Of a stretch of 27,343 nucleotides of DNA, positions 1 to 21,236 are shown one piece after another. Below the pieces are notes generated by a model, which had not been told where the DNA came from, ran no database searches, and saw nothing but the letters and a program-made list of their open reading frames with translations. A program made the translations under genes and the position numbers. Origin of the DNA: a virus (taxonomy: Duplodnaviria; Heunggongvirae; Uroviricota; Caudoviricetes); IMG/VR virus record IMGVR_UViG_2734482779_000006, positions 1 to 27,343 of that record. The stretch is one strand, 5' to 3'. Position 1 is the stretch's first letter, and every line of letters starts with the position of its first letter.

Positions 1-675
1 ATGATTATACATCATATCGCTAATAAACATTTAAATAATGCCGTTTACTGCAAAGGTGGCAGTGATGGCGGCTCTAAAGCCCAGGCACGCGCAACTGAAA
101 AGGGCATCGAACTGCAGCGTGAAATGTGGCAGACGAACATGCAAAACCTTGCACCGTTCACGCCACTCGCTCAGCAGTACGTATCAGAGTTGCAGAATCT
201 TTCCTCTCTTCAGGGGCAAGGTCAGGCGCTTAACCAGTATTACAACTCCCAGCAGTATAAAGACCTTGCAGGGCAGGCGCGTTACCAGAGTCTGGCAGCA
301 GCAGAGGCAACGGGTGGATTAGGCTCTACAGCAACAGGAAACCAGTTAGCAGCAATCGCACCTACACTCGGTCAAAACTGGCTGTCAGGTCAGATGAACA
401 ACTACAACAATCTGGCAAACATTGGCCTTGGTGCTCTTACAGGTCAGGCAAACGCTGGGCAGAACTACGCTAACAACGTCAGCCAATTGTATCAACAGCA
501 GGCGGCAGCATCTGCGGCGAATGCTAACCGACCATCAGGACTGCAATCAGCCTTGGGAGGTGCCATGAGCGGTGCGGCATCAGGGGCGATGATTGGCTCT
601 GTGGTGCCAGGAATAGGTACGGCTGTTGGCGCTATTGGTGGCGGCATTATCGGTGGTCTTGGATCATTGTTTTAA
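1..675 (+). CDS. Gly/Gln-rich virion protein, probable P22 gp7-like ejection (E) protein; may be 5'-partial at the window edge
   Basis: ORF begins at window position 1; low-complexity Q/N/G-rich sequence with Gly-rich C-terminus; first of three consecutive same-strand genes upstream of sieA-mnt-arc-ant-tailspike, which is the P22 late-operon order 7-20-16; size 224 aa is close to P22 gp7. Confidence 0.5.
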   Translation: MIIHHIANKHLNNAVYCKGGSDGGSKAQARATEKGIELQREMWQTNMQNLAPFTPLAQQYVSELQNLSSLQGQGQALNQYYNSQQYKDLAGQARYQSLAAAEATGGLGSTATGNQLAAIAPTLGQNWLSGQMNNYNNLANIGLGALTGQANAGQNYANNVSQLYQQQAAASAANANRPSGLQSALGGAMSGAASGAMIGSVVPGIGTAVGAIGGGIIGGLGSLF

Positions 676-684
676 GGTGGGAAT

Positions 685-2016
685 ATGGCTACTTGGCAAC
701 AAGGAATCAACTCAGGCGGCTTTCTTGCTGGTATCGGTGGGCAAAACTCAAATGCGCCAAAGGCAAGTGATGTAAGTGAGGCGTTGGCCTATATTCGCCA
801 GAACAACGAAATGGAGCGTTCAGGTCGCAATAACATCGGCCTTCAGGCGTTGCAGGGACTTGGTAGTGTCGCTCAAACATATCAAGCTGCAAAGCAACAG
901 GAAGCGGATGCTGCATTCCAAAAAGAATATGCGGCAGCCATCCAGTCCGGTGATCGACAGCAGGTTCGAGATCTGATGACCAAATATCCTGGTCAATTAG
1001 AGAAGATTCAGTCTGGTATGAAGTGGGCAGACGAAGACCAGCGTGATGAAATTGGCAATCTAGCGGCAGGCGGTCAAATTGCCTCCATGATGGGTGGTGA
1101 TGCATTTAGCAAGTGGATTGGAAACAATGCAACCAGATTGTCTAATCAGGGGGTAGACCCACAACAACTCCTCAGCATGTATCAAAAAGACCCACAAGCA
1201 ACATCACAACTTATCGGACAATATGGTCAGTTTGCATTAGGCCATGAAAAGTATTGGGATTTGCAGGACAAGATGGTTGGTCGCCAACTTGAGAAAGGGC
1301 GATTGGATGAAAGCATCCGTCAGGCTGATATGGAGAATGCGAGAGGATGGGCAAATATCCAGAACGCTCAACTAGACAGGGCTCAGCGGGCACAAATGCA
1401 TAATGATAACGTCGCCCTGAAGTTGCAGGAATTAGGGATGAAACAACAGGAAAGCGGAAAGATTGACCCAAAACTTGTTCGAGATCTGAATAGTGATATT
1501 AATGGGTTCTCAAAGAATTATTCTGCAATGCGCAGTGCTTCTGACAACCTACAAGCCCTTGGGAAGCGCAACACTCCAGCCGCGCAGTTGGGAATGATTT
1601 TCAACTATATGAAATCGCTGGATCCGCAATCTGTGGTACGCGAAGGTGAGCAAGTGCAGGTAAAACGCACTGATGGAATATTCGGCACACTTGGTAACTA
1701 TGTTAGCCAATTATCTAACGGCAAGATGCTGAATAATGAGCAAGTCCAAGACTTAATCAACACCTCAAAACTGATGGCAAATACTGAAGGCGAAAAGTTT
1801 AACCAGCAAATGGATGATTATCTTTCAACTTATGGAGATTCTCTCCCCAGCGGACTAACTAAGCAATTGCAATCCAGAAAAGCCAAGCTGTATGAAGATA
1901 TTCAGCAGCCTGCGCAACAACAGAGCAATAACCAACAACCGACAAATACCCAACAGCAGCAGAGTCAATCCGGATCATATACCTCAAAATCAGGCATTCA
2001 ATTTACGGTGGAATGA
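685..2016 (+). CDS. probable P22 gp20-like ejection protein
   Basis: 443-aa ORF with RBS AAGGTGGG upstream of ATG 685; synteny position between gp7-like and gp16-like genes; Q-rich C-terminus. Confidence 0.5.
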
Positions 2017-3854
2017 TGAAAGTAACTGCAAACGGAAAGACATTTACCTTCCCTGATGGTACGAGCACGGAAGATATTGGCACCGCCATTGATGAGTATT
2101 TTGCTGGTCAGGCTGTTCAGCAACAAACAGTTAATCAGGCCAATAATGAACCAGCGCGTGAAGAACCATCATTGATGCAACAAGCTGGCGATTGGCTCAC
2201 TGGTGGTCAAAGTGCAGGGCAAATTGCAGAACAGGCTGGTCGTGGTCTGGTAAACATACCATTTGACGTATTGCAGGGTGGCGCAAGTCTGATTAATGCA
2301 ATCAGTCAGGGGCTTGGTGGGCCAAAAGTTTTGGATGATGTTTATCGTCCAGTAGACAGACCGACAGACCCCTACGCTCAAGTTGGAGAAACAATTGGCG
2401 GGTATTTAGTTCCAGGAGTTGGAACGGCAGGAAGCATGGCTATTGGATCACTGGCAGAGGCCGCAAATCAGAAAGGCGATTTCGCACAAAATGCAGCTAA
2501 AAATGCCGGAGTTAACCTTGCCGCTCAGGGTGTTCTTTCCGCAGCAGCAAAGGGAATAGGGCGTGGAATAACGGCTATAAAAGGTGATATTGCGCCAGAA
2601 GTGGCGAAGAAAATTGCCACATCAGAATCGATGGGCGTGACACCAATGACATCTGATGTTATCACGCCGAAAAATGCTTTCACTCGTGGCCTTACTCAGG
2701 ATGCCGAGGGGGCTTTGCTCGGGACAGGCTCAAAGCGAGCTGAGCAATATGCAACGCGTAGTAAGCTGGTAAGTAATTATTTTGACCGTTTTGGTGAGTA
2801 CAACCCTGATGATGTGGTGAAATCTCTGACCACCACGTTAAGGGGGCGGAAGGATGCTGCTGGCGCTGTTATCAATGACGTCACCAATAAAATGGGTAAT
2901 GCCGCAGTTGATACTACAAATACCATGAATGCTCTGAATACAGCGATCGCAAGACAGGAACGGCTTGGGACTTCTGCCAATCAAAGCCTGCTTACATCCT
3001 TGCGTAACCTACGTGAAGAATTAGCAAACCCTGCAACTGATTTGGATGTTACGTTTGATCTCTTGCGCCAGCACAGAACAGCATTTAGATCTAATGTTCA
3101 GGGAGATGCCATGGTCTTCCCCAACCAGGCAAAAGCAGCTACCAATATGGTAGAGAATGCAATGTCAAAAGACCTTCGTAACGCAGTTGCTAAAAACCTC
3201 GGTGCTTCAGACGCAGCAAAATACCTTAAAGCAAATTCCGATTATGCAAACGTTTATAATAAGGTGCTTAATAAAAACATTGCTAACAAGCTCAACAAGG
3301 CAAGCAGTGAAGCCAGTCCTGAACTTATAAATACTGTTGTATTAAGCAGAAAACCATCTGACGTGAAACGAATCTGGAGCGCATTGGATGATAAAGGGAA
3401 AGATGCTATGCGTGCAGCTTACGTCAGCAAAATAGCGGAAAAGGCCGGTGACTCTCCAGCCAAGTTCATCACGGAAGTTAATAAGCTGAAATCTCAGTCA
3501 GGCGGTGAAATTTACAACACTATTTTTTCTGGAAAGCACATGAAAGAACTTGATGCTCTTCATGAAGTTCTACAGCAAACAGCAAGATCAGACACCGCAA
3601 ATGTAGTAACTCAGACGGGGCAATCGCAAGCCAACAGGATAAGGACGATTGGCGCAACTACGACTCTTGGCGTATCAATGGGGCTTGAGGCTGGTTTCGG
3701 TGCAATGATGCGCTTGTATGAATCCAAAGCAGCAAGGAATGCGCTCTTACGTCTGGCAAACACTAAAGCTGGAACGCCAGCTTATGAAAGAGCGCTAAAT
3801 CAGGCGGCTACTGCCGTGCGCCCGCTCTTAGTTAACGAAGCTACCCGGCAGTAG
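2013..3854 (+). CDS. probable P22 gp16-like ejection protein
   Basis: 613-aa ORF; start ATG overlaps upstream stop (ATGA at 2013-2016), indicating translational coupling; size and position match P22 gp16 (about 609 aa). Confidence 0.5.
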
Positions 3855-3876: not shown

Positions 3877-4371
3877 TTATTTTATAGTTTTTATGAATTC
3901 TTTATTAAATCCCTTCGCTTCTCCTGGGTATCTTCCGAAGACAATTTTTATAAAAACAGAAAAAATAAAGATAGCAACGCTTAACAACAATTGCAGTATC
4001 ATTGGAACCCAAAGAACTACAGGCTCTATATTCATGAAACCAAATATTCTTCCGGCGATCATGGCGAAGTACCACACTGTTATCAGCAAACTTAGTGGCA
4101 TATGAATTACTGATATTACCAATCCAAGAGCATCAGTAATTCTGTTTTCAAATTTTTCAGGGGAAAACTTTTCTTTAAGGTAATTCAGTGCGCAGGCCTC
4201 ATTCTCTGGATTTTCAGCATTTTTCCCTATAGCAATAGAAATCTCAGATATCCTTGATTCAATTCTTTTACGTTTAATAAAACTAGAAAAAAAGAACCAC
4301 GCAATCTGCAACCCTATCCCCAGAAATAGAGTTGCGGCAACTAGCACAGCGTAACTCATAGAATCAGACAC
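3877..4371 (-). CDS. small inner-membrane protein, SieA-like superinfection-exclusion candidate
   Basis: Several hydrophobic helices; sits immediately after the gp16-like gene on the opposite strand, where P22 carries sieA; start uncertain (in-frame GTG at 4371 with AGGAGG 5 nt upstream, or ATG at 4359). Confidence 0.4.
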
Positions 4372-4435
4372 ACCAACCTCCTTAGTTTTGTGCAGGATAC
4401 CAGATGATAATGTGTAGTTGGAGTAGCGCGGTTGT

Positions 4436-4526
4436 AATGCAAGCATTTTGTTTTGGTTTTATGCTTGCTTGTATGTGTGTACAGTGTATATAATGCAAGC
4501 ATATATCACAACAAGGTGCTTGCATT
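4436..4526. promoter_or_regulatory. divergent promoter/operator region with four copies of the palindromic motif TGCAAGCA/TGCTTGCA
   Basis: Motif at 4438-4445, 4462-4468, 4494-4501 and 4517-4524; sigma70-like -35 TTGCTT (4465-4470) and -10 TATAAT (4489-4494) overlap copies 2 and 3; copy 4 overlaps the RBS AAGGTG of the 4527 gene. Confidence 0.5.
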
Positions 4527-5519
4527 ATGACAGAAAAGAAAAGTAGTGAAGGGAAAGCTAAGGGCGGGATCGCTCGCGCAAAGTCGCTGACTAAAGAGCA
4601 GCGTTCTGAAATAGCAAAGAAAGCAGCGGCTGCAAGATGGAAGGATAAACCATTAATTGCCACGCATAAGGGATCGTTCCAGCATGAATTCGGGATTGAT
4701 GTTGAGTGCTATGTGTTAAATGATGATAACAAAACTGCCGTTATTAGCCAGAGAGGCATGGGAGAAGCGATTGGTCTTGGCGAAGGTGGCAGCAGGTTGC
4801 CAAAGTTTATTCAGGGGAAAACTATTTCTCAGTATATTGGGCATGAATTAAGGGCAAAACTTGAAAATCCTCTTATTTTTCAATACAAACAGGCGGGCAC
4901 GAACACTCCAGCTAATCCTGTAATACATGGCTACGATGTAACAATATTAATTGATTTATGTCGAGCAATCTCTAATGCTAAAGCTGAAGGTAAGTTGCTT
5001 TCCAGTCAGGAAGGGATTGCTAAGCAAGCCAGAATCATTATTGATGCATCAGCCAAGGCGGGCATTCAGGGGCTTGTTTATGCTTTGGCAGGGTATGACA
5101 GAACAAAAGAAGAGGTAATTCAAGCATATAAGCGATATGTTGCTGAAGAGGCTCGTGAGTATGAAAGAGAGTTCACCCCTGAACTTTATGAGCATTGGTA
5201 TCGTTTGTATGGTATAGACAAACCAGTTAGAGGGCGACCATGGGCGTTTAAATATCTTACGATAGATCACATTTATTACCCATTAGCCAGAAGTGAAGGA
5301 AAGGTATTTAATTTAGCAAAAACTTCAAAAGAAGAGAAAGGCAGCAAAAACGATAAAATACACCAGTTTTTATCAGAGGTTGGAGTTAAGGCTCTTAGAA
5401 CCCAAATAGGTAAGGTTACTGGTATTGCAATGGTTTCTGATACTCGAGAAGAGTATGAGAAATACATAGATGAAAAGGTTATTGGACAAAGAACCATAGA
5501 CTTAAAAGATAAAGAATAA
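4527..5519 (+). CDS. hypothetical phage accessory protein with a basic K/A/R-rich N-terminal segment
   Basis: 330-aa ORF with good RBS and a downstream intrinsic terminator; N-terminus KGGIARAKSLTKEQRSEIAKKAAAARW suggests nucleic-acid binding; located between sieA-like and mnt. Confidence 0.6.
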   Translation: MTEKKSSEGKAKGGIARAKSLTKEQRSEIAKKAAAARWKDKPLIATHKGSFQHEFGIDVECYVLNDDNKTAVISQRGMGEAIGLGEGGSRLPKFIQGKTISQYIGHELRAKLENPLIFQYKQAGTNTPANPVIHGYDVTILIDLCRAISNAKAEGKLLSSQEGIAKQARIIIDASAKAGIQGLVYALAGYDRTKEEVIQAYKRYVAEEAREYEREFTPELYEHWYRLYGIDKPVRGRPWAFKYLTIDHIYYPLARSEGKVFNLAKTSKEEKGSKNDKIHQFLSEVGVKALRTQIGKVTGIAMVSDTREEYEKYIDEKVIGQRTIDLKDKE

Positions 5520-6230: not shown

Positions 6231-6292
6231 AGCCCCAACTGCGGTAACAGTCAGGGCTTCGGTTGTCGGTAAATCCGTGGAGAAAAACCAAC

Positions 6293-7195
6293 ATGAATAG
6301 TATAGCAATTTTAGAAGCAGTAAACACCTCTTACGTACCTTTCAATGGTCAGCAGATTATCACCGCCATGGCTGCCGGAGTTGCATATGTTGCGATGAAG
6401 CCAATCGTTGAAAACCTCGGAATGAGCTGGGGTACTCAGCAACAAAAACTTATGAAACAACTAGATAAGTTCAACTGTATTCATATGAATATGGTTGCTG
6501 CTGATGGAAAGCTTCGTAAGTTACTCTGCCTTCCTTTGAAGAAGTTAAATGGGTGGCTGTTCAGCATTAACCCTGAGAAAGTTCGTGCTGACATCCGCGA
6601 TAAACTTATTCAGTACCAGGAAGAATGCTTTACTGTGCTGCATGACTACTGGACGAAGGGAAAGGCAGAAAATGCACGTAAGAAAACATCTGTTGATGAC
6701 AGGACTCCGCTTCGTGATGCTGTAAATATGCTAGTCAGCAAAAAGCATCTAATGTACCCAGAAGCTTATGCAATGATTCATCAGCGTTTCAATGTGGAAA
6801 GTATTGAAGAGCTTGATGCATCTCAGATACCGCAAGCCGTAGAGTACATCCACAGGGTAGTGCTTGAAGGTGAGTTCATTGGCAAACAAGAGAAGAAGAC
6901 CAACGAGCTTTCTGCAAAAGAAGCAAACAGTCTTGTATGGTTATGGGATTATGCCAACCGCTCACAGGCATTATTCCGCGAACTGTATCCGGCATTAAAA
7001 CAAATTCAATCGAACTATTCCGGCAGATGCTACGACTACGGTCATGAATTCTCGTATGTTCTCGGAATGGCGAGAGACGTTTTAATAAACCACACACGAG
7101 ATGTTGATATTAATGAGCCAGACGGACCAACGAATCTTTCCGCATGGATGAGACTTAAGAATAAAGAATTGCCTCCTTCAGTACATAACTACTGA
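6293..7195 (+). CDS. ant: Ant antirepressor
   Basis: N-terminus [22 protein letters not shown] matches the P22 Ant N-terminus as recalled; the true start is ATG 6293 rather than the TTG at 6263; followed by an intrinsic terminator. Confidence 0.85.
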
Positions 7196-7214
7196 CAGAT
7201 AACCAACGCAACGA

Positions 7215-7238
7215 CCCAGCTTCGGCTGGGTTTTTTTA
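7215..7238 (+). terminator. rho-independent terminator after ant
   Basis: Hairpin CCCAGC-TTCG-GCTGGG followed by TTTTTTT. Confidence 0.7.
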
Positions 7239-7305: not shown

Positions 7306-7794
7306 TTATCTAAAACAAGCAAACTCGCCATGATATTTTTCCCTGAATGCAATAGACATCAATTCGGCCAGCTCAATATCATCGGTATACCCAAGGCAAA
7401 TAGACTTACCTTTTAGTTTGAACATAACTTTATATGTGTTTTTCCCTTTAAGAAGATGAACTCCTTTTATACCTGTATTGGATGATGAAACGCTGTTGGT
7501 TTTATTCTGACCTCTGGTTACTTCTCTTAGGTTTGAAATTCTATTGTCATTTTTAACCCCGTTAATATGGTCAATTAACCCTTTAGGCCAGCATCCTTTC
7601 ATATAAAACCAAGCAAGTCGGTGGCAAAGATACGATTTTCCATTAATCCGTATTGATAAGTAGTCGGCCTGTGAGTTCGTCTTAAATCCAGCAACCTTTC
7701 CGATACTGGAGCTACCAGAAGCTATCTTCCAAGTGAAGACGCCTGTTTCTGGGTTGTAGTTGAGTGAAGAGGTTAATTCTTTATGAGTAATCAT
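7306..7794 (-). CDS. HNH homing-type endonuclease (HNH_3/AP2-like)
   Basis: Motifs CHRLAW...GLIDHINGVKNDNRISNLR typical of phage HNH endonucleases; ATG at 7794 has better RBS spacing (AAGGA plus 6 nt) than the ATG at 7800. Confidence 0.75.
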   Translation of the reverse strand: MITHKELTSSLNYNPETGVFTWKIASGSSSIGKVAGFKTNSQADYLSIRINGKSYLCHRLAWFYMKGCWPKGLIDHINGVKNDNRISNLREVTRGQNKTNSVSSSNTGIKGVHLLKGKNTYKVMFKLKGKSICLGYTDDIELAELMSIAFREKYHGEFACFR

Positions 7795-7820
7795 ATTCAT
7801 TCCTTAAATAGAGATTCACT

Positions 7821-9953
7821 ATGTCAAATATTGTGCCAAATGTTATAATTTCAATGCCAAGTCAACTATTTACGTTAGCCAGAAAATTCCAAGCCGCAAG
7901 CAATGGCAAGATATTCATTGGTAAGATAGATTCCGATCCTACGCTCCCACAGAATCAAGTGCAGGTTTATGTGGAGAATGAAGACGGTTCTCACGTTCCT
8001 GTTTCGCAACCAATCATCATTAACGCTGCTGGTTATCCTGTATATAACGGACAGATTGCCAAATTCGTTACCGTGCAAGGCCATTCTATGGCTGTTTATG
8101 ATGCGTATGGTGCACAGCAGTTTTACTACCCAAACATTCTGAAATATAACCCTGACCAATTAGAGTTGAGATTAATTGGACCGGATGGTTTTAAATACAT
8201 AGGGAGATGCAAAAATATTAATGATTTACGTCTAATAGAACCAACAATTGAAAGTCAATTAATAAATGTTATTGAGCATAGTGATGGTGTTGGTATCGGT
8301 GGCGGTTTTTTTGAGTATGATTCAACAGATAATACTTCAGAAGATGATGATGGAATGATAATTGTCACGCCTGGTGGAAAGCGTTGGAAAAGGATATGCA
8401 ATAAAGTGTATGCTGATTATTACGGAATTGTTCCAGATGGAGTAACGGATTATCATGATAAATTGAACAAAGCACTGCAAGCGGCAAAAATGGCAACGGT
8501 GAAAGAGCTTATTCTTTCTGAAGGTACTTACGGGATTAACTCTGCACTGAAAGTACCATCTCACGTTAGATTGCGTGGGGTGGGGAAATTTAAGACCGTT
8601 ATTCTAGCACTACCAACAATGCCGATAATTGAAAACTGTATTCAGAACGAGCTTTATGAATACAGGGTATTCAGGACAAACTACGATACTTCTATCCACA
8701 TAGAAGACTTATGTGTAGATGCTAACAATCGAGCAAGAAATCCGTCAGAAACATGGATGGATGCCACACAGGGGACTACTATTTTATTTTCTACTGTTAG
8801 CCACAGTTCCATCAAAAACGTTTACTGTAAGCGTGGTTTGCAGCATGGTATAGATATTTGTGCCGGGTATTATTTCGATGATGGAAATATTGATAATAAT
8901 GCAGTTGGCGGTAGCTATGACATTGTTGTTGAAGACACTTTTGTTCAAAACAGTCAACTTGACGATCTCATTACAACGCATAATAGCAGTGATATTGTAA
9001 TTAACCGCTGCCGAGTATGGAACGATGACCCATCTCAAGTATGGAATGATAACCAACACGGAATTGAAATTGATGAAGGAAGTTATAACGTCACAGTAAT
9101 GGATTGTTATGCTGAAAATGTTATCACTGGGTTTCAACAAAAAGGTCACTCCACTACAATGCCTGCTAGAAGTGTCCGATTCATTCGTTGTTATGCAAAA
9201 GATTGTGTTTACAGTTTCCAAATTGAACATCGAAACTCACAAACAATACCTTCTGGGCAACATCAACAAGCGCGTAATTCAGTGATTGAGGATTGTACGT
9301 CTGATAACGCAAATAATATTAAATATCAGGCTCTTCACGCTCGCGCGCTTCTTGTTTTAGGTTTTTTTGGTGTTTATGTGCGAAATCTGAGAGTTATAGG
9401 AGGGTCAGGAAATATATATTTAACTGGTGGTGCTAAATATATAAATATCGATGGTGTTCAGTGGACTGGAGGGTATGATGGAGCATCAAGCACCACACAG
9501 GAAGGGTTGATACATATAGAAACTAACGCAGCAGTTGATGATTATTGCATTCGTGATTTTATATGTGAAGATACGGTTACCGTGCCACTTATAAGAGACC
9601 TTACTGACACCACTGTTCAGCGAGAAATATCAAATGTTCGTGGGTATGGCGGGGATAATTCAATCCCAATGATCGCTATTGCGCCGCAGTCTGGTGATAA
9701 TATATCTAATATATCTAATGCGGGTACGTGGGCCTGCGCCATTAGAGATATGGCTAGAGAGGTAGGACAAGGTGATTACGCTCAAAGTGTATCCTTCCAG
9801 AATGGTTTCATTTTTATTTCAGGTAATGGCACCCCAAATGGGGTTATATCTGGCAAACCTGGTGCCGTGTATGTTAACACGGCGAGTGGATTTCAGTATC
9901 TTTGCACGGCTATAGGCAAAAATAACTGGGTTCCAATTACAACCGGAGTTTGA
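7821..9953 (+). CDS. tailspike protein with P22-type N-terminal head-binding domain
   Basis: First ~110 aa ([49 protein letters not shown]...[15 protein letters not shown]...LKYNPDQ) closely parallel the P22 gp9 N-terminus; the remainder is a long divergent receptor-binding region; 710 aa. Confidence 0.9.
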
Positions 9954-10012
9954 TGGTTAAAAATATCACACGCAAAGCTTTGCATCGGTTTGCAAGGTTT
10001 TGCGCCAATTCC

Positions 10013-11170
10013 CTATGATACATTCCCATCAAGCCAGTCCGCCCACCATTGCATCATTTCTCTGCGCTTATCCAGATACTGAGCATGGTTGTAAATCCCG
10101 CGTACAGATCCGCCGTTGGCATGTGCCAGTTGCACTTCAATAGCATCAGCAGGCCATTCGTGCTCGTTCATAATTGTGCTGAATTCATGCCTGAATCCGT
10201 GACCGCTTTCCAGACCTTCATAGCCGATTTGTTTGATCACAAGCAATACCGCGTTCTCGCAGATTGGCTTCTTCTTATCGTTGCGACCGGCAAAAACAAA
10301 CTCTGATACTGGTTTAGTGATTGAGCTTAGCGTAGTGAGAAGTTCAATCACCTGGTCTGACATAGGAACCACATGAATTTTGCGTCCTTTCATCACACTG
10401 GCGTCGATGGTGATAATCCTGTTTTCAAAATCGACGTTCTTCCATTGCATGGAACGAAGCTCTTTAGTTCTTAGGGCTGTATAGCGTAAAACCTTGGTGG
10501 CAATGAGCGATACGATACTTCCTGAAAATGTTGCCAGTGCTTTGTTGAATGCCGGGATCTGGTCTGCAGGAAGAAACGGGAAGTTCTTCTTGCGGTATCC
10601 CTTCATGGCGTCAGCAAGGTCAGGTGCCGGGTTATATTTAGCCCTTCCGGTGACAATAGCGTAACGGAAAACCTCGCCGCATCTTCTGCGTGCTTTGTTG
10701 GCTCGCTCCATTGCCCCGCGATCTTCAAATCTGCGGATTACTTCCAACAGTTGCATCGGCTCAATATCCTGAATTTCAAGGCCGCCGATGATGGGTAAAA
10801 TGTCGTCATCAAACATTTTTGCAAGTTCATTTGCATAGCCTACTGACCAGACTTGCTTCTTGTGCTCGTACCATTCCTTGTAAATGGCGCTAAAGGAGTT
10901 GTTGTTAGACGAAGCCTTTTTCGCCTTTACCGGATCGATGCCAACCGAGATGTCTTTCCTCGCGGTCCATGCTTTATCCCTTGCCTCCTGCAAAGTCATA
11001 AGCGGATATTTTCCGACGGTCAGGATTTTCTCCTTACCGTCAATCTTGTAGCGAAGCTGCCATACCTTTTTCCCGGATACAGGGACATAAAGGTACAGTC
11101 CATTACCATCGAGAAGGCGGTATGGTTTTTCTTTCGGCTTTGCTGCTTCAATCTGCTTAACGGTGAGCAT
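10013..11170 (-). CDS. intS: IntS-type tyrosine integrase (P4-like, argW-specific)
   Basis: 385 aa from MLTVKQIEAAKPKEKPYRLLDGNGLYLYV (integrase N-terminal arm-binding type); catalytic motifs GHGFRHEFST and LAHANGGSVRGIYNHAQY; the 16-bp argW-derived att core lies about 160 bp upstream. Confidence 0.9.
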   Translation of the reverse strand: MLTVKQIEAAKPKEKPYRLLDGNGLYLYVPVSGKKVWQLRYKIDGKEKILTVGKYPLMTLQEARDKAWTARKDISVGIDPVKAKKASSNNNSFSAIYKEWYEHKKQVWSVGYANELAKMFDDDILPIIGGLEIQDIEPMQLLEVIRRFEDRGAMERANKARRRCGEVFRYAIVTGRAKYNPAPDLADAMKGYRKKNFPFLPADQIPAFNKALATFSGSIVSLIATKVLRYTALRTKELRSMQWKNVDFENRIITIDASVMKGRKIHVVPMSDQVIELLTTLSSITKPVSEFVFAGRNDKKKPICENAVLLVIKQIGYEGLESGHGFRHEFSTIMNEHEWPADAIEVQLAHANGGSVRGIYNHAQYLDKRREMMQWWADWLDGNVS

Positions 11171-11330
11171 GGGTAAAAATCCGGTGGGTAAAATTATTTT
11201 ATCCACTTTTTACCCGTCATGTAGTGCGGCTGTCAACGATCTGACGCGAACCATGACGAACTGTAAATCTACGGAAGGCTTGATATTCAGGGGATTTTGC
11301 GGACTGGTACGGATGGGAGCGAACTGATAA

Positions 11331-11346: not shown

Positions 11347-11568
11347 AAATCATCTTAATTATTATCGTATTGATTTATATGTTATTTATTTTGGCTGTCT
11401 TGTTTTTGTACCCGTTTTGTACCCGTTTTATTCTATTCCCAATTTAAACTTCGATTCTGAAAAGGTGAGTGGGGGAGGTTATCATTTTATGTATCATTGT
11501 TGTAGACACAGAATAATTACTCGCCTATCCTCACTGTATACACACCATAGATACAGGAGTTAACCCAC

Positions 11569-11817
11569 ATGCGCACACAGGTTGTATTGCAAAAATGGGG
11601 TAACAGCATTGCCCTTCGACTAACGGGAAACCTTAAAACCGTTCCGGGTTTTTCAGTGGGTGATATCGTCAACGTTGAAATTAGTGAAAAAGGGCTTTTT
11701 GTAGAAAAGCCTGCACGCCGTCGCCTGAGTGAAGCCGAACTACTCGCCGGGATAACGCCAGTTACAGCGCACGCTGACGAAATTGCCACCCCATTCAATG
11801 AGGAGGTTGATTACTGA
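11569..11817 (+). CDS. MazE/ChpS-family antitoxin (AbrB/SpoVT fold)
   Basis: 82 aa; KWGNSIALRL motif and acidic C-terminus typical of MazE/ChpBI; stop overlaps the toxin start. Confidence 0.8.
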   Translation: MRTQVVLQKWGNSIALRLTGNLKTVPGFSVGDIVNVEISEKGLFVEKPARRRLSEAELLAGITPVTAHADEIATPFNEEVDY

Positions 11818-12161
11818 TGTTTGTACCTAAGCGTGGTGATATTTGCTGGCTGGATTTTGAGCCGCAGAAAGGAAAAGAGATCGGAAAGTATCGCCCGGCA
11901 CTCATACTGTCCCATGAGCAATATAACCGACTCACCGGGTTTGTCATATGCTGCCCCATAAGTACGAGCATACGAAATGCTCCCACAGAAGTTCCGGTAA
12001 CAAATCTGGACGCCCCCAGCGTGGTAGCAACCACACTCATTCAAACCCTTGACTGGCGTCAGCGGAAAGCGCGCTTAATCACAGAGGCAGAAGATGGGGT
12101 ATTTAATGATGTGCTTGAAAGAGTCATTACTCTGATTGGTGGAGAGCATCTGCTTAAGTAA
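11817..12161 (+). CDS. MazF/PemK-family endoribonuclease toxin
   Basis: 114 aa; PKRGDICWLDFEPQKGKEIGKYRPALIL matches the MazF/ChpBK N-terminal signature; start overlaps the antitoxin stop by 1 nt. Confidence 0.85.
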   Translation: MFVPKRGDICWLDFEPQKGKEIGKYRPALILSHEQYNRLTGFVICCPISTSIRNAPTEVPVTNLDAPSVVATTLIQTLDWRQRKARLITEAEDGVFNDVLERVITLIGGEHLLK

Positions 12162-12204
12162 AAGGAGGGCTGAGAAGCCCTCAACGTTACCGGAAATTTC
12201 CTTG

Positions 12205-13476
12205 CTATTCTTTCCAGTCAATCCCATCCAGTAAGCACCCTGCCTCATATTGCCCCACCACCCAGTCAAGGTTACAGGACTCATAGAACGAGAGGCGATT
12301 ATACTGAGGCTCGTTTTTTACCAGGCCACGAACGGAACCACGCTGCCAGTACAGACACAGATTGGCAAGAGGTGTGATCAATACAGCATTGTCCGGGAAA
12401 AATGGAACGGTTACAGCCGGGAGATTCCCCAGAACGGGATTTTTAATGATTTCCTCGTTAAGCAAAATTTCCTGATTCATCTGCGATGGATCAAGACGGT
12501 TTATCAAAGGCCATTGTTTACGGACCAGCGTATTGTGACTGCATACGGCCACAATGCCTTCCTGCCACTGTTCATCAATCATGGATTGCCAGGCATCCAG
12601 AACGAGCGCATCTATCGTATGGTGTGTACCGCGTGTATTACTTTTCGGTGATGAAACAGAAAGGCCGCTGATAACCCTTCCCGCCGCTTCATTTCGAAAC
12701 TTCTGCAACCAGCCCACGCCACAATCGTCACGCCCCGGATATGTTTTAGGGTCAGATTTGGCGGCATAATGTGTGCCGTTAAAACCAATCTGAATTAAAT
12801 CCAGCCATTTCCGGCGTTCAAAAGCGGCCCGCGCACTTCCTTCAAGGCCGTTTGCGGATGCGTGAGCATCGGCATTGTCGTAGTTCAACGCAAAATCAAA
12901 ATTAACCTGCTCGCAGCGGTAGCCCCTTGAAACCAGTGAATGCGCCTGTAGTGGCGAACGGCGCTCGTGAGGTGGCGATGTACGTGCCAACGACCCCGAA
13001 GCGTCTACCAGCACAACCCGACCTGATATATCCGTAACAGGCACGGGAGTTATTTCAGCAAGGAAATTTGCCTGCCATCCACTGGCAAGCGTTGCACTCT
13101 GGCGAGGAACGGGTTCAACTTCTGACGAATAGCGCGCAGTGTCACCGGAAAAGTGCAAATCCTTCGGATGCTTTCCGGTTATCGACTCGATAGCGCAATT
13201 GAAAACCATCTGAGACTGTTGATTTCGTTGTGATACAACAGAATCAGCAGTGCAATTATAACGCTCAATGCCGTCGTTATTACCCCCACCGCTTGCAGTA
13301 TGCAGGGTGTGAAGCTCAAGCTCACGCTCCAGTTTTTGATATTCATTGTCCAGCGCGCGACGCGTCTCATCGCTTATGCTTGCTGTGTTTGCTTTCAGGC
13401 GATTCCGGGACATTAATCCCCTGAGTCGGCTCACTATATCAGCGCCGTGCAAATGTGGAGTATTCAGACCGCCCAT
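12205..13476 (-). CDS. candidate P2-family major capsid protein (gpN-like)
   Basis: 423 aa from the ATG overlapping the upstream stop (TAATG at 13474-13478); segments NFDF...GFNG...GWLQKFRNEA...GNLPAVTVPFFPDNAVLITPLANL...NYxSxNLDWVVGQYEAGCL resemble my recollection of P2-family capsid proteins; sits in a late-type operon downstream of an Ogr/Delta gene; needs confirmation. Confidence 0.45.
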   Translation of the reverse strand: MGGLNTPHLHGADIVSRLRGLMSRNRLKANTASISDETRRALDNEYQKLERELELHTLHTASGGGNNDGIERYNCTADSVVSQRNQQSQMVFNCAIESITGKHPKDLHFSGDTARYSSEVEPVPRQSATLASGWQANFLAEITPVPVTDISGRVVLVDASGSLARTSPPHERRSPLQAHSLVSRGYRCEQVNFDFALNYDNADAHASANGLEGSARAAFERRKWLDLIQIGFNGTHYAAKSDPKTYPGRDDCGVGWLQKFRNEAAGRVISGLSVSSPKSNTRGTHHTIDALVLDAWQSMIDEQWQEGIVAVCSHNTLVRKQWPLINRLDPSQMNQEILLNEEIIKNPVLGNLPAVTVPFFPDNAVLITPLANLCLYWQRGSVRGLVKNEPQYNRLSFYESCNLDWVVGQYEAGCLLDGIDWKE

Positions 13477-14186
13477 TACTGCCACCCCCGGCAGAGTTCT
13501 CTGCCCTCCGCAAGGTCGCGCATTTTTTCTGGATTCTGTCGCGCCGCGCTCCATTGTACAGGTGAAGGGGCGCTCCTGATTGCGCAGCTTACTGAATCCG
13601 GGAGTTTCTCCGGGCAATAACGCAGCGGGCTGGAGGTGTCGCTTTCGGTATCGTTAATCCGGCCGCGAATCATCCCGACACTTTCAGCAGTATCTGCCGC
13701 TTTCAGTGTTTCGCATATTTTCTTTTCTGCGTTATACAGCGGCTGGCCAAGCAGCTCACATAAACCACGAATCAATAACAGAACAGGGGTCAGCTCGTTA
13801 ATCAGTTCGGGAAGTGCTTTTGCAAATATCTCTGCCCGCAACTTATTATCAATACTTTCGTAAGCACAACCAGCCTCTGCCGCGTTATAACGACACTCCA
13901 GTAGCCTGATGCGCGCCTCATCATGCAGCACCCGCAGACGCTCAAGATTTTCTCGCGCCACACCCGCCTGAATGGATAATTTCGCGGAGGCTTCCGTTTT
14001 TACTCCCAGCGCAGACAGGATTGAGTTCTGCCAGTCACGATCGAGAGACTCCAGTTCCCCTTTCGTCTGTTCGATAGTCGCTTCCAGATTGGTGACTAAT
14101 GATTCCTGTTCACTGAGCTTTGCCCTGGCTGTATCAAACTGTGCTTTACATACCTGATGTTCGGCGCTTGCCTGAGTTATATCCAT
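13476..14186 (-). CDS. coiled-coil protein, candidate capsid scaffolding or size-determination protein (gpO/Sid-like)
   Basis: 236 aa, strongly helical and heptad-like N-terminal half; translationally coupled to the capsid-like gene; size close to P4 Sid (244 aa as recalled). Confidence 0.4.
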   Translation of the reverse strand: MDITQASAEHQVCKAQFDTARAKLSEQESLVTNLEATIEQTKGELESLDRDWQNSILSALGVKTEASAKLSIQAGVARENLERLRVLHDEARIRLLECRYNAAEAGCAYESIDNKLRAEIFAKALPELINELTPVLLLIRGLCELLGQPLYNAEKKICETLKAADTAESVGMIRGRINDTESDTSSPLRYCPEKLPDSVSCAIRSAPSPVQWSAARQNPEKMRDLAEGRELCRGWQ

Positions 14187-14350
14187 TATTTGCTCCTGTA
14201 ATACATTTTTTACTTACGCCGATTTTTTCCATATTGCGTAATACATTCCAGCCGATTTTGTTCTCGTAATACGCTCACAATACTGTTGTATTACGCTTTC
14301 TTATATCGCGGGTGTTAAATCCCGACATAAACAATCAGGGAGGCAACACG

Positions 14351-14584
14351 ATGAAAAAACAAAAGAAAATGCGATGCGTATTACGCTGTATTCGTATTCC
14401 GCTCGAAATCGACCATAAAATAAATCAGATATGTAAGGACAGAGAGATGAACTACTCCCAGTGCGTCAGGATGTTTATCAGTCAGGGAATTAAGGCTGGG
14501 GAAAAGCATGAAGAAGACCGCAACGGGCGCAATGTCGCGGGGGATGTGTGGGCCTGGGCAAATGACCAGAACCACACGACATAA
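14351..14584 (+). CDS. small ribbon-helix-helix (CopG/Arc-like) DNA-binding protein
   Basis: 77 aa from ATG 14351 (GGGAGG RBS); RCIRIPLEIDHKINQICKDREMNYSQCVRMFISQG fits a beta-strand then helix-helix RHH pattern; divergent from the scaffold/capsid operon. Confidence 0.5.
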   Translation: MKKQKKMRCVLRCIRIPLEIDHKINQICKDREMNYSQCVRMFISQGIKAGEKHEEDRNGRNVAGDVWAWANDQNHTT

Positions 14585-14634
14585 TACAGAAATAACGCAG
14601 CCGGTCACACTCGCTGGCTGTGTTATACAAATCA

Positions 14635-14817
14635 CTATGAAGTTTTCGACTTCCTGCGCTTAGTGATGCGTACAAACGACTCAAGCGTACAAAAACAGGC
14701 CCCGCACTCAATATTATTGCACTGGTAATACGTTTTGTAGATGTTTTGTTCGTGTTCTTCCAACGAACGACCACGGGTGCGGGCTGAAGCGCCACAGGCC
14801 GGGCAAGGGAAAGACAT
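14635..14817 (-). CDS. Ogr/Delta-family zinc-finger late transcription activator
   Basis: CPACGASARTR...YYQCNNIECGACF is the C-x2-C...C-x4-C Ogr/Delta zinc finger; AGGAG RBS 6 nt upstream of ATG 14817. Confidence 0.8.
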   Translation of the reverse strand: MSFPCPACGASARTRGRSLEEHEQNIYKTYYQCNNIECGACFCTLESFVRITKRRKSKTS

Positions 14818-15387
14818 ATCACGCTCCTCTTACTGGTGTGAAATTTAACCTATTATATCTTCCGCCGCCTCCTCTGGCTGTATCAAATAAATCCGCAACG
14901 GTCGCTGCGTATTACGCGCAGGCACACCGTTCCCATACTCACTCCTCACATTCCCCGTATCAGTTCTCTCTTGCAGTAAGAACGGCTCTGGCTGGCGATA
15001 AAACTAACCCGGTCGGGCATTCCCACAGTCTTTAGCGAAAGATGTAATTTACCCCCTGAAACGCGGGCTGTTCCCCCGTCACCTGCGCGCGAAAAACTCA
15101 CCGTTTTTTGTGCACGCACGAAATCGCCCTCCGGGCGCGCCCGTACTGGGCCGGATGGGCAAAAAGTTACTCTAAAAAATTGTGCAAATTTGTGCACTTT
15201 TGTGCAAACGGGAAGAGGCTGTTTAAAGGCGGTTTTTTGCGTTTTTTTGGTAGCTGTAACGTGATGCGTATTACGTTTTTATTCGCTTCTATGTGAAGAG
15301 ATAACAATGATTTCATTCAATTTATTGTGTTGCACTTTTGTTGCTGGTCTTGCCAGTGTTTTTTTGCCTCTACCTCAAAATCCGGTA

Positions 15388-15690
15388 GGGGGTGCGCAAA
15401 CGGGTTACAAAGGTTACAGCCCCCTAAAACACATATTAACACCATGATTTTAAATGAAATTGTTTGTAACCTTTTTGAGGTTACAGAAGGTTACACGAGG
15501 TTACACCAATTAAAAACATATTAATTATCAATTAGTTATAAGCGTGCTCTGTAACCATGCGTAACCTCTGCATAAAGGTTACATGTAACCCTGTTGTAAC
15601 CCATTTTGTAACCTTTTAAAGGTGTTATAATATATTGATATATAATATATTTTTCTGTTTGTAACCTTTGTAACCCGTTTGCGCACCCCC
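15388..15690. repeat. 30-bp perfect inverted repeat (15388-15417 and 15661-15690) flanking an array of about 14 GGTTAC/GTAACC hexamer iterons
   Basis: Left arm GGGGGTGCGCAAACGGGTTACAAAGGTTAC is the exact reverse complement of the right arm; hexamers between the arms often fall at 10-11 bp phasing; AT-rich core TATAATATATTGATATATAATATA at about 15626-15650. Confidence 0.7.
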
Positions 15691-15940
15691 CCCCGGACTT
15701 TAGCGCGCGCCTTTAAAATGTTAATTAAACTAACTTACTATGTGTCACTCTCATTAACTTTCTGTGACTAAAATGTGTCTCGTCACTGTGGAACTCTTTC
15801 TGATAATCAGGGGGCAAAAAATTGATGGCGGCACCACTGCAATATGGCCACCATTGCATTGCTGTTACCGTTGGTTCTGGCCAACAAAAAAGGCCAGTGG
15901 AAAACTGACCTCTTTTGCTGTGAATGTAGTGTTCTGCGGG

Positions 15941-16942
15941 TTACTCTGCTGGCTCTTTTTCTTTGGCGATATTCGCATTAGCCACTGGATTAAACTTCAG
16001 GACATCAGACAAATAATCAGGCGCAAAATGTGCGTATATCATTGTTTGTTGAATATTTGCATGCCCTAAAACTCGCTGAAGAGCAATTATACTCCCTCCA
16101 TTCATCATAAAATGCGTAGCGAATGTATGCCGTAATACATGAACAGCTTGCCCCTTTGGCAGATCTGGCTTTACAGCGCGAAGCATTTTACGGTATTCAC
16201 CATAATCAACATCAAACAACCCCCCCGAATCTTTTGTTTTGATTTCGCGAACAACTTCATTTGAAATGGGAACAATGCGGACTTTACCGTTTTTGGTTTT
16301 GTTAAATATCACACGATTATCAATGATGTGTTCTGCTCGCAAGCTTTTTGCCTCTCCCCATCTGGCCCCCGTACTAAGGCACAGCAATGTAATTCGACGC
16401 GCATCACCATTAGAAAAATTCAACAAACGAATAATTTCTTCATGTGTCAGATATGTCATTTCTGAAATCTTTCGTTTCATAGCGGGAACAGAACGAACAG
16501 GATTTTTACTATGAAATTCTCCACTCTGGATCAACATGGTGAACATTCCAGCCAATTCCGCTTCATCTCGCTGAATTGTAGAAATTTTGACTCCTGCTCC
16601 CAATCTCTCGCTGCGATACATAGCCATAAACCGCGCATTTATTTGTTCTGCTCGCGGATCTCCCATTTCTTTAATTACTTTCTTTAGTCTTAATTTAACA
16701 TTGTCAGCGTATGGTTTGTTGCGTCCACCCAGTTTCCACCACAGCTCCAAGAGTTCAGAAATGCGCCTGTGATCAGCTGGCTTTTCAAGCCACTCTTTAT
16801 CATTCATATGGCTAAGAACATATCGCTCAAAAGCTAAGGCATCTGCTTTCTTTTTAAAAAGCCGCTGAATTCTGCGTCCATACCGCCCGTTTGGCCTGAT
16901 ATCTACCTTATAGGAGCCATCATCACGCTTTTTAACGGACAT
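15941..16942 (-). CDS. P2-type tyrosine integrase/recombinase
   Basis: 333 aa from ATG 16942 (AGGAGGG RBS 9 nt upstream, 3 nt after the primase stop); N-terminus MSVKKRDDGSYKVDIRPNGRYGRR is typical of P2-family integrases; catalytic HVLRHTFATHF and LGHANIQQTMIYAHF. Confidence 0.85.
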   Translation of the reverse strand: MSVKKRDDGSYKVDIRPNGRYGRRIQRLFKKKADALAFERYVLSHMNDKEWLEKPADHRRISELLELWWKLGGRNKPYADNVKLRLKKVIKEMGDPRAEQINARFMAMYRSERLGAGVKISTIQRDEAELAGMFTMLIQSGEFHSKNPVRSVPAMKRKISEMTYLTHEEIIRLLNFSNGDARRITLLCLSTGARWGEAKSLRAEHIIDNRVIFNKTKNGKVRIVPISNEVVREIKTKDSGGLFDVDYGEYRKMLRAVKPDLPKGQAVHVLRHTFATHFMMNGGSIIALQRVLGHANIQQTMIYAHFAPDYLSDVLKFNPVANANIAKEKEPAE

Positions 16943-16944
16943 AT

Positions 16945-19614
16945 TTAGCGTCCCTCCTTGTAGCTGAATATCCAGCATTTCAATACTTCATTTTCTTTAG
17001 CCTGGGCTACCCCCCTTCCGGTGTTCGCCTGTTTGACTACCTCGCTACGGACTGACTTGTACCCAATCAGTGGCCGAGAACGACCAGTCTTGAGAAGCTT
17101 TATCATTTCGGGATTGGTTTGGATCTTCACATGGTGAATAGCGGCAACCTGCTCCAGTTGCGGGATACTAACGGCAAGCCCATTCTGGGATCCCTTGCCA
17201 AAGTGGTTTACGCCGTATGCTGTTATGCCGTCCAGATAGTCGAACGCCTCCCAGAACGCTATTACTTCCGGCAAGTCATCCGTTACCGCTTTAGCTTGTT
17301 CCGCTGCCATTCGTTCCAGTTCCTGGCATGTGGCATTAAGCCATTCATCCGGGATATCAATAACGCATTTCAGCGCCCTGACCAGCGCAATAAGTTGCGC
17401 GTGATTTTTGGCAATACGCTGATGACGAATATTTTCGCAACCATAAAGGCGGGTTGTTTCAGGATCAGATAGTGCCATAAACGTCTCCATAATCGCCCGT
17501 TCCTGACTTACTGCCCGATGGATAAAACCTGATACCTGCTCAACGGGGTAAAGCTCCAGCCGTTTTGCTGCCAATCGGCTATCTGGTGAGTGGCGTTTTT
17601 TATCGGTGTATACGCGTACCAGACGCTCAATAATTGCCGATGAGGCGTTTACCGTGGCATTCTGCGCAATCACGATAGCCCCCTTAAAAACGGGGTCATA
17701 TGTGGCGTTATCATTGGTTTTAACGCCACGCACCCCAATACCGCCACCGTTATAGAGGCTTTTCAGGTTATCGAAATCAAACGCCCCCCTTTTTTGTGCG
17801 TTATCGCCCCTGTCCGCTTCAATCAGAACAACAGGTAATCCAGCAACCTGTCCAAAAGTTCGCTTCCAGCCTGATTCTGAGCCTTTGGTTGGATCAACAC
17901 CTTCATAGTTGTCACGGCCACACAAACGCCAGCAAAAATCAATTAACGTTGTTTTACCCGTACCTGGCTCTCCGGTAATCTCAAGAAAGGGGTAAGATGT
18001 GTTTTTCTGCCTGATTTGTTCGCTGAACAACGAACCCAACCAGAAAGCCAGGGTAATAATTCCCTTTTCACCAAACGCCAGCCAGAGATCTTCCACCCAG
18101 GATGTTGTAAATTCATCCGGTTTTTTATAGTTAATCTGCAATATTGGTTTTTTATTCAATGGTTTTGCGTTTACGCCATCAATTTCAAAATAATCCTCTT
18201 CATTGATTTCGTAGGTTTTACCATTACAAACCGCGATATCATTAAACAACCACGCACCAATCTCTTTGTTGTATCCGATAAAATCCTGACCGATAACACT
18301 TTTTATTGCGGGAAGGTCATTTTTTATTAATGCGTCAAGGTGCGCAGTTGTTCCGGTATAAATACCGCCTTTTGCTACGTGCAACAGACGTTTTTTAAAT
18401 TCAGATGCGGATGTTAATTGCCCTGATGTAAAGGTGTTTTTCACCGTAGCACCATCCGGGAATGTAATGCGGAAGTAATACCATGCTTCATCCGTATCAT
18501 TGTTTCGAATGTAATAAAGCGGCACTGGGTTACAGTTTGCGATTTCTTTTACAGCGCCGGATTCCTTGAGTGCAATTTTGCGCGCTTCATCTTCGTCAAC
18601 ATTTCGCTCATTAATGACACGCTCAACAGCCTTCATATGGCGCTCAATATCCAGCTTGAACCAGAACACACGGTTATCAAAGGGAAAATGAAATTCCTTT
18701 CGCTCACGAAAGGAAAACATTATTAGTGCCTTATCTCTCGGAGATTTCGCCAGCAATAAATCACCGTAATAACGGTATCTTTTCACATCATGGCCACGTA
18801 GCTTTCCGGCGATGTGTAAATCATTCCAGTCGCGTTTATTGTTGTTTTCACCCGGTAACGCCGCTGCCGTTCTCCAGCCGCCTTCGGCGCTGCGTTCTGC
18901 ATGTTTTTTTGCGTAACGCTCACCCGCACGCCCGTTATCCAGCGCCCACACAATAACCGGACGGGGATTATCTCCGCACAGCTTCGCCAGTTCTTCCAGC
19001 GCCTTATCAGGGTAGTTCACGGCAGACATGACAGAAACGGCCGCAATGCCATTCTGGTTAAGGCTGATGGCATCAAAGACACCCTCACAAATCCAGATTT
19101 CTTTGGCCTTGCTTAAATCTGCTCCCGGATAAGCCCACCACAGCCCCTTGTAGCTGCCGGAAAAATTCGCCTTGCGCGCGAAGCGTTCCGGTCGGTCTAT
19201 GATGCGCTCCCACCACACACCGTCAGCCAGCGTAAAACGCACGGTAGCAGCTTGTTCGCCGCTTTCCTTGTCCTGGTATCGCTCCTGAGTAAATGCGCCC
19301 TTCAGTGGCTCCACAGCAATATTGCGCGCCTCCTGAAGATAAGCTGCCGCCGCTGCGTATGGATCGTCTTTCGTGCTGATATAGCGATCTGACCATGATG
19401 AAAACACATCCGGGTAAAGTTCTTTGGTCAGCAGGTCTGTACCGCATTTATTTTCACGCCCGCAGTGTACGATGTACGGCCTTTCAAGGCTGGTAAACAG
19501 CTCCTTCTTTCCACATTGCGGACAAACACCATACCGAAGGTAGTTATTTTCTTCTTTGAAGTTGTAATCACGGATAAGACGGTTAATAATCTCTTTTCTG
19601 GTATCAGGCTTCAT
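16945..19614 (-). CDS. P4 alpha-like primase-helicase
   Basis: 889 aa; N-terminal zinc-binding CPQCGKK...HCGRENKC; Walker A GEPGTGKTT in the C-terminal helicase region; location and size typical of satellite-phage alpha proteins. Confidence 0.9.
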   Translation of the reverse strand: MKPDTRKEIINRLIRDYNFKEENNYLRYGVCPQCGKKELFTSLERPYIVHCGRENKCGTDLLTKELYPDVFSSWSDRYISTKDDPYAAAAAYLQEARNIAVEPLKGAFTQERYQDKESGEQAATVRFTLADGVWWERIIDRPERFARKANFSGSYKGLWWAYPGADLSKAKEIWICEGVFDAISLNQNGIAAVSVMSAVNYPDKALEELAKLCGDNPRPVIVWALDNGRAGERYAKKHAERSAEGGWRTAAALPGENNNKRDWNDLHIAGKLRGHDVKRYRYYGDLLLAKSPRDKALIMFSFRERKEFHFPFDNRVFWFKLDIERHMKAVERVINERNVDEDEARKIALKESGAVKEIANCNPVPLYYIRNNDTDEAWYYFRITFPDGATVKNTFTSGQLTSASEFKKRLLHVAKGGIYTGTTAHLDALIKNDLPAIKSVIGQDFIGYNKEIGAWLFNDIAVCNGKTYEINEEDYFEIDGVNAKPLNKKPILQINYKKPDEFTTSWVEDLWLAFGEKGIITLAFWLGSLFSEQIRQKNTSYPFLEITGEPGTGKTTLIDFCWRLCGRDNYEGVDPTKGSESGWKRTFGQVAGLPVVLIEADRGDNAQKRGAFDFDNLKSLYNGGGIGVRGVKTNDNATYDPVFKGAIVIAQNATVNASSAIIERLVRVYTDKKRHSPDSRLAAKRLELYPVEQVSGFIHRAVSQERAIMETFMALSDPETTRLYGCENIRHQRIAKNHAQLIALVRALKCVIDIPDEWLNATCQELERMAAEQAKAVTDDLPEVIAFWEAFDYLDGITAYGVNHFGKGSQNGLAVSIPQLEQVAAIHHVKIQTNPEMIKLLKTGRSRPLIGYKSVRSEVVKQANTGRGVAQAKENEVLKCWIFSYKEGR

Positions 19615-19660
19615 ATATAAATCCTCTCCCCCCCCCTGTAAAAATACAGGGGGTTATTCT
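19615..19660 (-). other. stem-loop plus G9 tract in the primase 5' leader
   Basis: On the minus strand CCCCCTGTA-TTTTT-ACAGGGGG hairpin followed by GGGGGGGGGAGAGGA and the ATG; no U-tract, so not a canonical terminator. Confidence 0.4.
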
Positions 19661-19966: not shown

Positions 19967-20033
19967 AAAAGCTCCCCGACCCGTTAAGGCCGAAATATAA
20001 AATTAATTCAGTTATCAGTTGGCAATTCGGGAA

Positions 20034-20437: not shown

Positions 20438-20439
20438 CG

Positions 20440-21204: not shown

Positions 21205-21236
21205 GCTCGCTAGCTTTAGCGAGCTTCTTTTTTTTG
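21205..21236 (+). terminator. plus-strand intrinsic terminator inside the satellite leader region
   Basis: GCTCGCTA-GCTT-TAGCGAGC hairpin followed by TTCTTTTTTTTG; orientation is antisense to the satellite genes. Confidence 0.5.

Follow-up and report, generated by a model that had tools for sequence, protein, structure and literature searches.

The tailspikes of P22-like phages are homotrimers carried in six copies on the tail, and modular tailspikes with swapped bodies are a textbook feature of the group. P22 gp9, Sf6 gp14 and HK620 gp9 have a head-binding domain in common, are encoded beside int where the late region ends, and follow one plan, with an anchor first and then a parallel beta-helix for binding to a surface polysaccharide. 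A second kind of appendage is found in the Bacillus phage phi29, and the review PMC9863714 describes the phi29 appendages as recognising and digesting the wall teichoic acid of B. subtilis. Here we describe a tailspike gene in a 27,343-nucleotide stretch of Caudoviricetes DNA (positions 1 to 27,343 of IMG/VR record IMGVR_UViG_2734482779_000006, the whole of which is called the window below). The gene joins an anchor of the first kind to a body of the second. Our best explanation, to which we give a probability of about 0.5 as a whole, is that it encodes a P22-like tailspike with a gp12-like body acting on the O-antigen shared by Escherichia coli O118/O151 and Salmonella O47.

Relationship to the P22-like tailspikes

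The tailspike gene (Table 1) is a single intact open reading frame (ORF) that starts with ATG, and the coordinates proposed in the first-pass annotation match this one ORF exactly. Its 710-aa product has the same sequence as RefSeq WP_052319322.1, "phage tailspike protein [Escherichia coli]" (exact-sequence look-up). The identical ORF is present on four E. coli contigs in the same context, and one of these, JUBY01000025.1 (GCA_000797675.1), has the gene order of the window. By its anchor, gene position and fold the protein is a P22-like tailspike.

The first-pass annotation held that only the first ~110 residues resemble P22 and that the remaining ~600 are unrelated to it at the sequence level. 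BLASTP against P22 gp9 (NC_002371) aligns aa 1-126 alone (58% identity, E 1e-43), with all remaining segments at E > 0.5. HK620 gp9 aligns over aa 3-~120, with ragged matches continuing to 147 (E 6e-62), and no significant BLASTP alignment to it was found past the N-terminus. In a PDB sequence search the hits to the P22 and Sf6 tailspikes are confined to aa 1-~129, save that Sf6 has a marginal further stretch (aa 201-258, i-Evalue 0.25); none of the hits is an HK620 body structure. Both statements are borne out, the second for P22 and HK620 and essentially for Sf6. The body is thus not a member of the endorhamnosidase and endo-N-acetylglucosaminidase bodies of P22, Sf6 and HK620, there being no significant alignment past aa ~129.

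Full-length near-identity to a characterised tailspike, which would have spoken against the first-pass annotation, was found neither among 50,697 phage records, searched by megablast and tblastn, nor in the PDB sequence search. None of these phage records spans >36% of the tailspike at useful identity, and the distant phi29 gp12 is the sole solved structure that matches the body in the PDB sequence search. Databases list the gene as a tailspike already, and an in silico study has linked a tailspike cluster to serotypes. The protein is an uncharacterised member of an ordinary kind; the neck module, the relationship to phi29 gp12 and the likely target go beyond the first-pass annotation.

A body of the phi29 gp12 type

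By sequence comparison and predicted fold, residues ~196-710 are homologous to the pre-neck appendage gp12 of phi29. Pfam places a pectate-lyase-like beta-helix (PF12708) on aa 201-438, and phrog_4775, "pre-neck appendage protein", matches the body with E 2.3e-37. HMMER aligns phi29 gp12 over 325 residues (E 8e-15), and with the pre-mature gp12 (3suc, 772 residues) the alignment covers chain residues 27-338 alone, which are the helix. Identity to gp12 (3gq7/3suc) and to Staphylococcus pre-neck appendages such as Dpo7 is ~22-28%. An AlphaFold2 (AF2) monomer model built on a 30-sequence alignment has a mean pLDDT of 85.7, with values >90 across nearly all of aa 130-640 and a poorly modelled N-terminal domain, and its predicted central element is a right-handed parallel beta-helix. 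When this model was searched against the PDB with Foldseek, phi29 gp12 (3gq7) ranked first (E 2.9e-17, TM 0.54/0.63, 500 columns). In the structure comparison proposed in the first-pass annotation, the predicted fold of the body is a right-handed beta-helix, as in the P22, Sf6 and HK620 tailspikes, to whose bodies it is unrelated in sequence. Homology and the conserved residues place the body in the phi29 gp12-type family (phrog_4775).

The tailspike also differs from phi29 gp12 in several respects. The N-terminal anchors are different. gp12 has a C-terminal autocleaving chaperone, whereas the tailspike stops at aa 710 and gave no match to Peptidase_S74 or any other C-terminal Pfam family. gp12 targets wall teichoic acid, whereas the tailspike comes from a Gram-negative host and its target is presumably the lipopolysaccharide (LPS) O-antigen.

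The gp12-like core is distributed mainly among phages of other hosts. A tblastn search of the 50,697 phage records with aa 260-560 gave 123 matches, most of them annotated as pre-neck appendage proteins: 74 are in Staphylococcus phages, 46 in Bacillus phages, and one each in a Vibrio, an Aeromonas and a Xanthomonas phage, with none in Escherichia or Salmonella phages. The body type is otherwise nearly confined to phages of teichoic-acid-bearing Gram-positive hosts, and the target predicted for it here is a teichoic-acid-like O-antigen. Close relatives of the whole protein are enterobacterial. The 90%-identity cluster of the tailspike comprises 65 proteins, for the most part from Salmonella enterica; the clusters next to it, with 87-93% identity, also come from Salmonella, and a Citrobacter portucalensis homologue has 80% identity. 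Full-length homologues at 75-97% identity are found in many genomes.

A set of polar residues on successive rungs of the predicted helix is strongly conserved. When 1.84 billion representative proteins were searched exhaustively with HMMER, 280 clusters proved to be related, 51 of them at E <= 1e-30, and conservation was scored in the 143 clusters that have <50% identity and cover the helix. D382, H387, E416, D418 and H443 are kept in all 143, D381 and T385 in 142, H342 in 140, K441 in 136, D300 in 120, D345 in 115 and H470 in 71. The motifs common to the tailspike and gp12 are D300-x-NN, H342-GID345, D381-D382-x-ITTH387, E416-I-D418-xGS, K441-x-H443 and H470. Their rung-by-rung placement is as expected of a catalytic groove, and to judge from conservation these may be the catalytic residues of gp12 itself; the secondary papers on gp12 give no active-site residues.

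Three exchangeable modules

The evidence supports a tailspike made of three separately exchanged modules: a virion anchor (aa 1-113), a neck (aa ~116-195), and a helix with its C-terminal domain (aa ~196-710). The anchor matches Pfam Head_binding (PF09008) over the full profile (E 7.8e-64) and residues 1-118 of Sf6 gp14 (E 1.7e-60), and nt 1-342 of the gene recur in the tailspikes of many E. coli prophages, with 92-98% identity.

The neck lies between the Head_binding and pectate-lyase domains in the precomputed Pfam list, and is shared by tailspikes with other bodies. Over nt 142-576 the gene has 95.7% identity in three complete E. coli genomes; past nt 576, none of 5,426 complete E. coli genomes shares tailspike DNA. 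The 655-aa protein P0030 is near-identical over aa 100-195 and then continues into an unrelated body. The conserved/divergent boundary of the first-pass annotation, ~110 aa, is right for P22, but since aa ~116-195 form a second common module the truly divergent part begins near aa 196. The neck stretch matches residues 17-95 of CBA120 TSP2 5w6p and residues 258-340 of 6w4q (HMMER). More broadly, the N-proximal domains of CBA120 TSP2 (5w6p/6w4q) and of Klebsiella K2 tailspikes match aa ~121-240 (E 1e-7 to 1e-10), and Pantoea WceF (6tgf) matches aa 8-215 (E 1e-21). The catalytic helices of these three are unrelated in sequence to that of the tailspike, and the likeness is one of structural neck module only.

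The body in turn is seen behind at least five anchors, Head_binding included. P0009 (809 aa) has 82% identity over aa 116-710 and P0014 (722 aa) 74% over aa 114-710, both with other N-termini, and in both the C-terminal domain is co-inherited with the helix. The other anchors are Tail_spike_N (PF18668) in P0014, a phrog_1640-type tail-fibre N-terminus in P0009, phrog_12242 in P0020, and Phage_tail_fib (PF12571) in P0028, a distant body relative with 32% identity. The 809-aa form also occurs in an IMG/VR contig of a different phage type, where it adjoins an O-acetyltransferase and an endolysin. The same body behind other anchors, and the same first 195 residues before an unrelated body, support the swapped specificity module proposed in the first-pass annotation. 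P0014 was deposited as a protein of a "Bacteroides heparinolyticus" metagenome-assembled genome; as its relatives are enterobacterial, it probably comes from a mis-binned phage contig.

The G+C content is 0.38-0.39 at 8001-9500, versus 0.42-0.52 in most of the prophage and flanking chromosome, which is consistent with a laterally acquired module. The module would have spread by recombination at ~aa 114 and ~aa 195, between phages with different anchors and the same host glycan. The architecture itself is not new, but the map with its two junctions is directly usable in chimeric spike engineering.

A ribitol-phosphate O-antigen as the likely receptor

The body probably recognises the O-antigen common to E. 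coli O118/O151 and Salmonella O47, which has ribitol-5-phosphate in its main chain. The named Salmonella serovars with close homologues (87-93% identity) are Bere, Luke, Bergen, Teshie and "arizonae serovar 47:z4,z23:-". We take all five to be O:47 in the Kauffmann-White scheme, although only the last states O:47 in its name; a literature look-up of the serovar formulae gave no matches. Some of these Salmonella strains (locus tags MKM07_ and K2805_; P0006/P0072 and P0007/P0075) encode both the 710-aa and the 809-aa form. Two unrelated prophages with one body in the same host strain are as expected of a module matched to the host glycan. Among the O118 strains of E. coli are producers of Shiga toxin.

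The published glycan chemistry is in line with this assignment. The title of Perepelov 2009 gives ribitol phosphate and L-FucNAm as constituents of the Salmonella O47 antigen. E. coli O118 and O151 have a rib gene and ribitol-5-phosphate, with a beta1->3 versus a beta1->2 linkage in polymerisation, and are the only two of the reviewed E. coli O-antigens to contain ribitol-5-phosphate (PMC7685785). The SpikeHunter preprint describes tailspikes that E. coli O118/O151 prophages have in common with those of Salmonella O47; by its account, the glycans of the three differ solely in the GlcNAc-to-ribitol linkage (PMC10370184). The SpikeHunter cluster (Fig. 4e, PMC10370184) is, like the tailspike described here, found in E. 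coli and Salmonella prophages with O47 on the Salmonella side; it is a statistical association alone, without analysis of fold, mechanism or modules. The assignment makes a concrete and testable specificity prediction, for the O-antigens of E. coli O118/O151 and Salmonella O47.

Proposed mechanism and alternatives

The spike would trimerise and dock onto a P22-type tail through its head-binding domain, and the body would bind the O118/O151/O47 O-antigen and shorten it. The bond cleaved would be the ribitol-phosphate phosphodiester rather than a glycosidic bond, as with gp12 on wall teichoic acid. Depolymerisation of the O-antigen would lower the virion to the outer membrane, where the needle and the ejection proteins could act. 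Hydrolysis of the ribitol-phosphate phosphodiester by this tailspike is plausible but unproven, with the chances evenly poised. It is favoured because the polymer broken down by the closest homologue is a polyol phosphate, and because the proposed substrate is one of very few enterobacterial O-antigens with a polyol-phosphate backbone. Rather tentatively, this may be the first Gram-negative phage tailspike to depolymerise LPS O-antigen by hydrolysis of the teichoic-acid type, with a module shared with phi29-like, Bacillus and Staphylococcus appendages. If so, it would represent a new chemistry for O-antigen-specific tailspikes and a reagent to type or strip ribitol-phosphate glycans. It would also mean that host glycan chemistry, not host phylogeny, sets the depolymerase module, and that the module has crossed the Gram divide.

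Several points weigh against this explanation. The SpikeHunter O118/O151/O47 cluster may be a different protein from this tailspike (PMC10370184). The O-antigen locus, from which the serotype of the E. coli carrier would be read, is far from argW and outside the 10-kb flanks of the tailspike contigs, and a search for the body DNA among the 5,426 complete E. coli genomes, meant to give the O-type of a carrier, had no match. The five serovar names come from >100 cluster members. For the tailspike and its close homologues the function is predicted from sequence and fold, and trimerisation and the placement of the conserved residues in a cleft are likewise presumed, the AF2 model being that of a monomer. 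For gp12, Xiang et al. in 2009 reportedly assigned teichoic-acid digestion to the helix domain, and Myers et al. in 2015 reportedly found phosphodiesterase activity on poly(glycerol phosphate). To our knowledge, all characterised P22-like tailspikes are glycosidases.

The last point makes cleavage of a glycosidic bond in the same O-antigen the main alternative, and a serious one. The same spike, with the same receptor, may be a conventional endoglycosidase like those of P22, Sf6 and HK620, acting for example on the beta-GlcNAc-to-ribitol or the alpha-Gal/FucNAm linkage, with the gp12-like residues as acid and base in the hydrolysis. The fold is also common to GH28 and GH87 enzymes, and one homologue is labelled GH28-related by NCBI. 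We regard this as a real possibility, if not a probable one; the kinship to gp12 and the polyol-phosphate backbone of the proposed substrate favour the phosphodiesterase.

It is unlikely that the body targets another surface glycan (capsule, colanic acid, enterobacterial common antigen (ECA) or another O-type) and that the O47 names are a coincidence of sampling. In its favour, the named serovars number only five, and one homologue, with 80% identity, comes from Citrobacter portucalensis. The first 261 residues have as their best PHROG one labelled "colanic acid degradation", though it leaves the body uncovered. However, the five named serovars are, on our assumption, all O:47, with none discordant, and one body is carried by two different prophages in the same strains. 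An independent large-scale study also ties tailspikes shared by E. coli and Salmonella to O118/O151/O47 (PMC10370184).

A lyase or epimerase mechanism is unlikely because the O118/O151/O47 repeat, on the structures that we assume for it, contains no uronic acid. That the spike binds its receptor but is inert, or that the gene is a decaying prophage remnant, is very improbable: among the beta-helix relatives there are adhesins without enzyme activity (the fold searches bring up PfbA) and WceF is described as a weak or inactive tailspike-like protein (6tgf title), but the ORF is intact and identical across several contigs, its full-length homologues are widespread, and the polar constellation is invariant in distant relatives, which argues for retained catalysis. 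The Staphylococcus homologue Dpo7 was considered as evidence on function and set aside, since its target is unresolved in the literature and it lends support to neither side.

Genomic context

The tailspike belongs to a temperate podovirus of the P22-like kind, whose prophage occupies the argW locus of E. coli; the window contains the right end of this prophage (Table 1). The order of ejection proteins, sieA, arc/ant, tailspike and int is the same as in P22. The gap between tailspike and int (9954-10012) contains no O-antigen-modification gene; elsewhere this gap holds gtrABC (P22), an O-unit polymerase gene (HK620) or a WzyE-family polymerase gene (E. coli E94), and the prophage with the 809-aa form carries its O-acetyltransferase beside the tailspike. 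The prophage may leave the host O-antigen unconverted, or may convert it from another locus. A promoter and terminator scan around the tailspike found nothing above the shuffled background except a terminator after ant at 7213-7232.

Table 1. Tailspike modules and neighbouring features in the window
Feature	Position	Strand	Remarks
Tailspike gene	7821-9953	+	710 aa, stop included (ORF list)
Module 1, P22-type head-binding domain (virion anchor), aa 1-113	7821-8159	+	Pfam Head_binding PF09008
Module 2, neck/linker, aa ~116-195	8166-8405	+	precomputed Pfam PF27114 Phage_tail_beta
Module 3a, right-handed parallel beta-helix, phi29 gp12-like, aa ~196-560	8406-9500	+	predicted catalytic
Predicted active site	8718-9230	+	D300, H342, D345, D381, D382, T385, H387, E416, D418, K441, H443, H470; successive helix rungs
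Module 3b, beta-rich C-terminal domain, aa ~561-710	9501-9950	+	AF2 strands, pLDDT 87-95
Ejection proteins gp7/gp20/gp16	1-3854		Pfam P22_gp7, Inj_translocase, P22_gp16
sieA	3877-4446	-	
P63C-domain ORF	4527-5519		
arc/ant (immI) region, ant	6263-7195		Pfam Arc, P22 antirepressor
HNH_3 endonuclease ORF	7306-7800	-	phrog_99, E 4e-60
Prophage integrase	10013-11206	-	directly downstream of tailspike; Pfam Arm-DNA-bind_3/Phage_integrase
Satellite MazE/PemK-type toxin-antitoxin pair	toxin 11817-12161		
Satellite P2-family major capsid gene	~12205-13476	-	
Satellite Ogr/Delta zinc-finger gene			
Satellite integrase-like gene	15941-16978	-	
Satellite Toprim primase	16945-19614	-	
Satellite second integrase	22531-23835	-	adjoins tRNA-Arg(CCT)
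tRNA-Arg(CCT)	23972-24046		E. coli argW region; then yfdC, mlaA, yfdF

The HNH_3 ORF between ant and the tailspike is divergent, and its start lies 20 bp from the tailspike ATG. It is found upstream of the tailspike in all four E. coli contigs, two of which (L003 and L005) have a different ejection-protein backbone, and is missing from E. coli E94 (L001), which has another tailspike, as well as from the region upstream of the homologue in Salmonella (L012/L013). The source contig has a second HNH_3 gene, immediately upstream of gp7. The HNH_3 genes may encode homing endonucleases and in this way favour co-conversion of the adjoining tailspike module.

In the Salmonella contigs L012 and L013 no prophage gene follows the homologous tailspike, which borders directly on thrS-infC-rpmI-rplT-pheST, so the integration site of the carrier prophage there differs from argW of E. 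coli. In the window, a P4-like satellite lies in tandem between the P22-like prophage and argW (~11500-23900). The satellite has its own P2-type capsid protein and is of interest in this respect.
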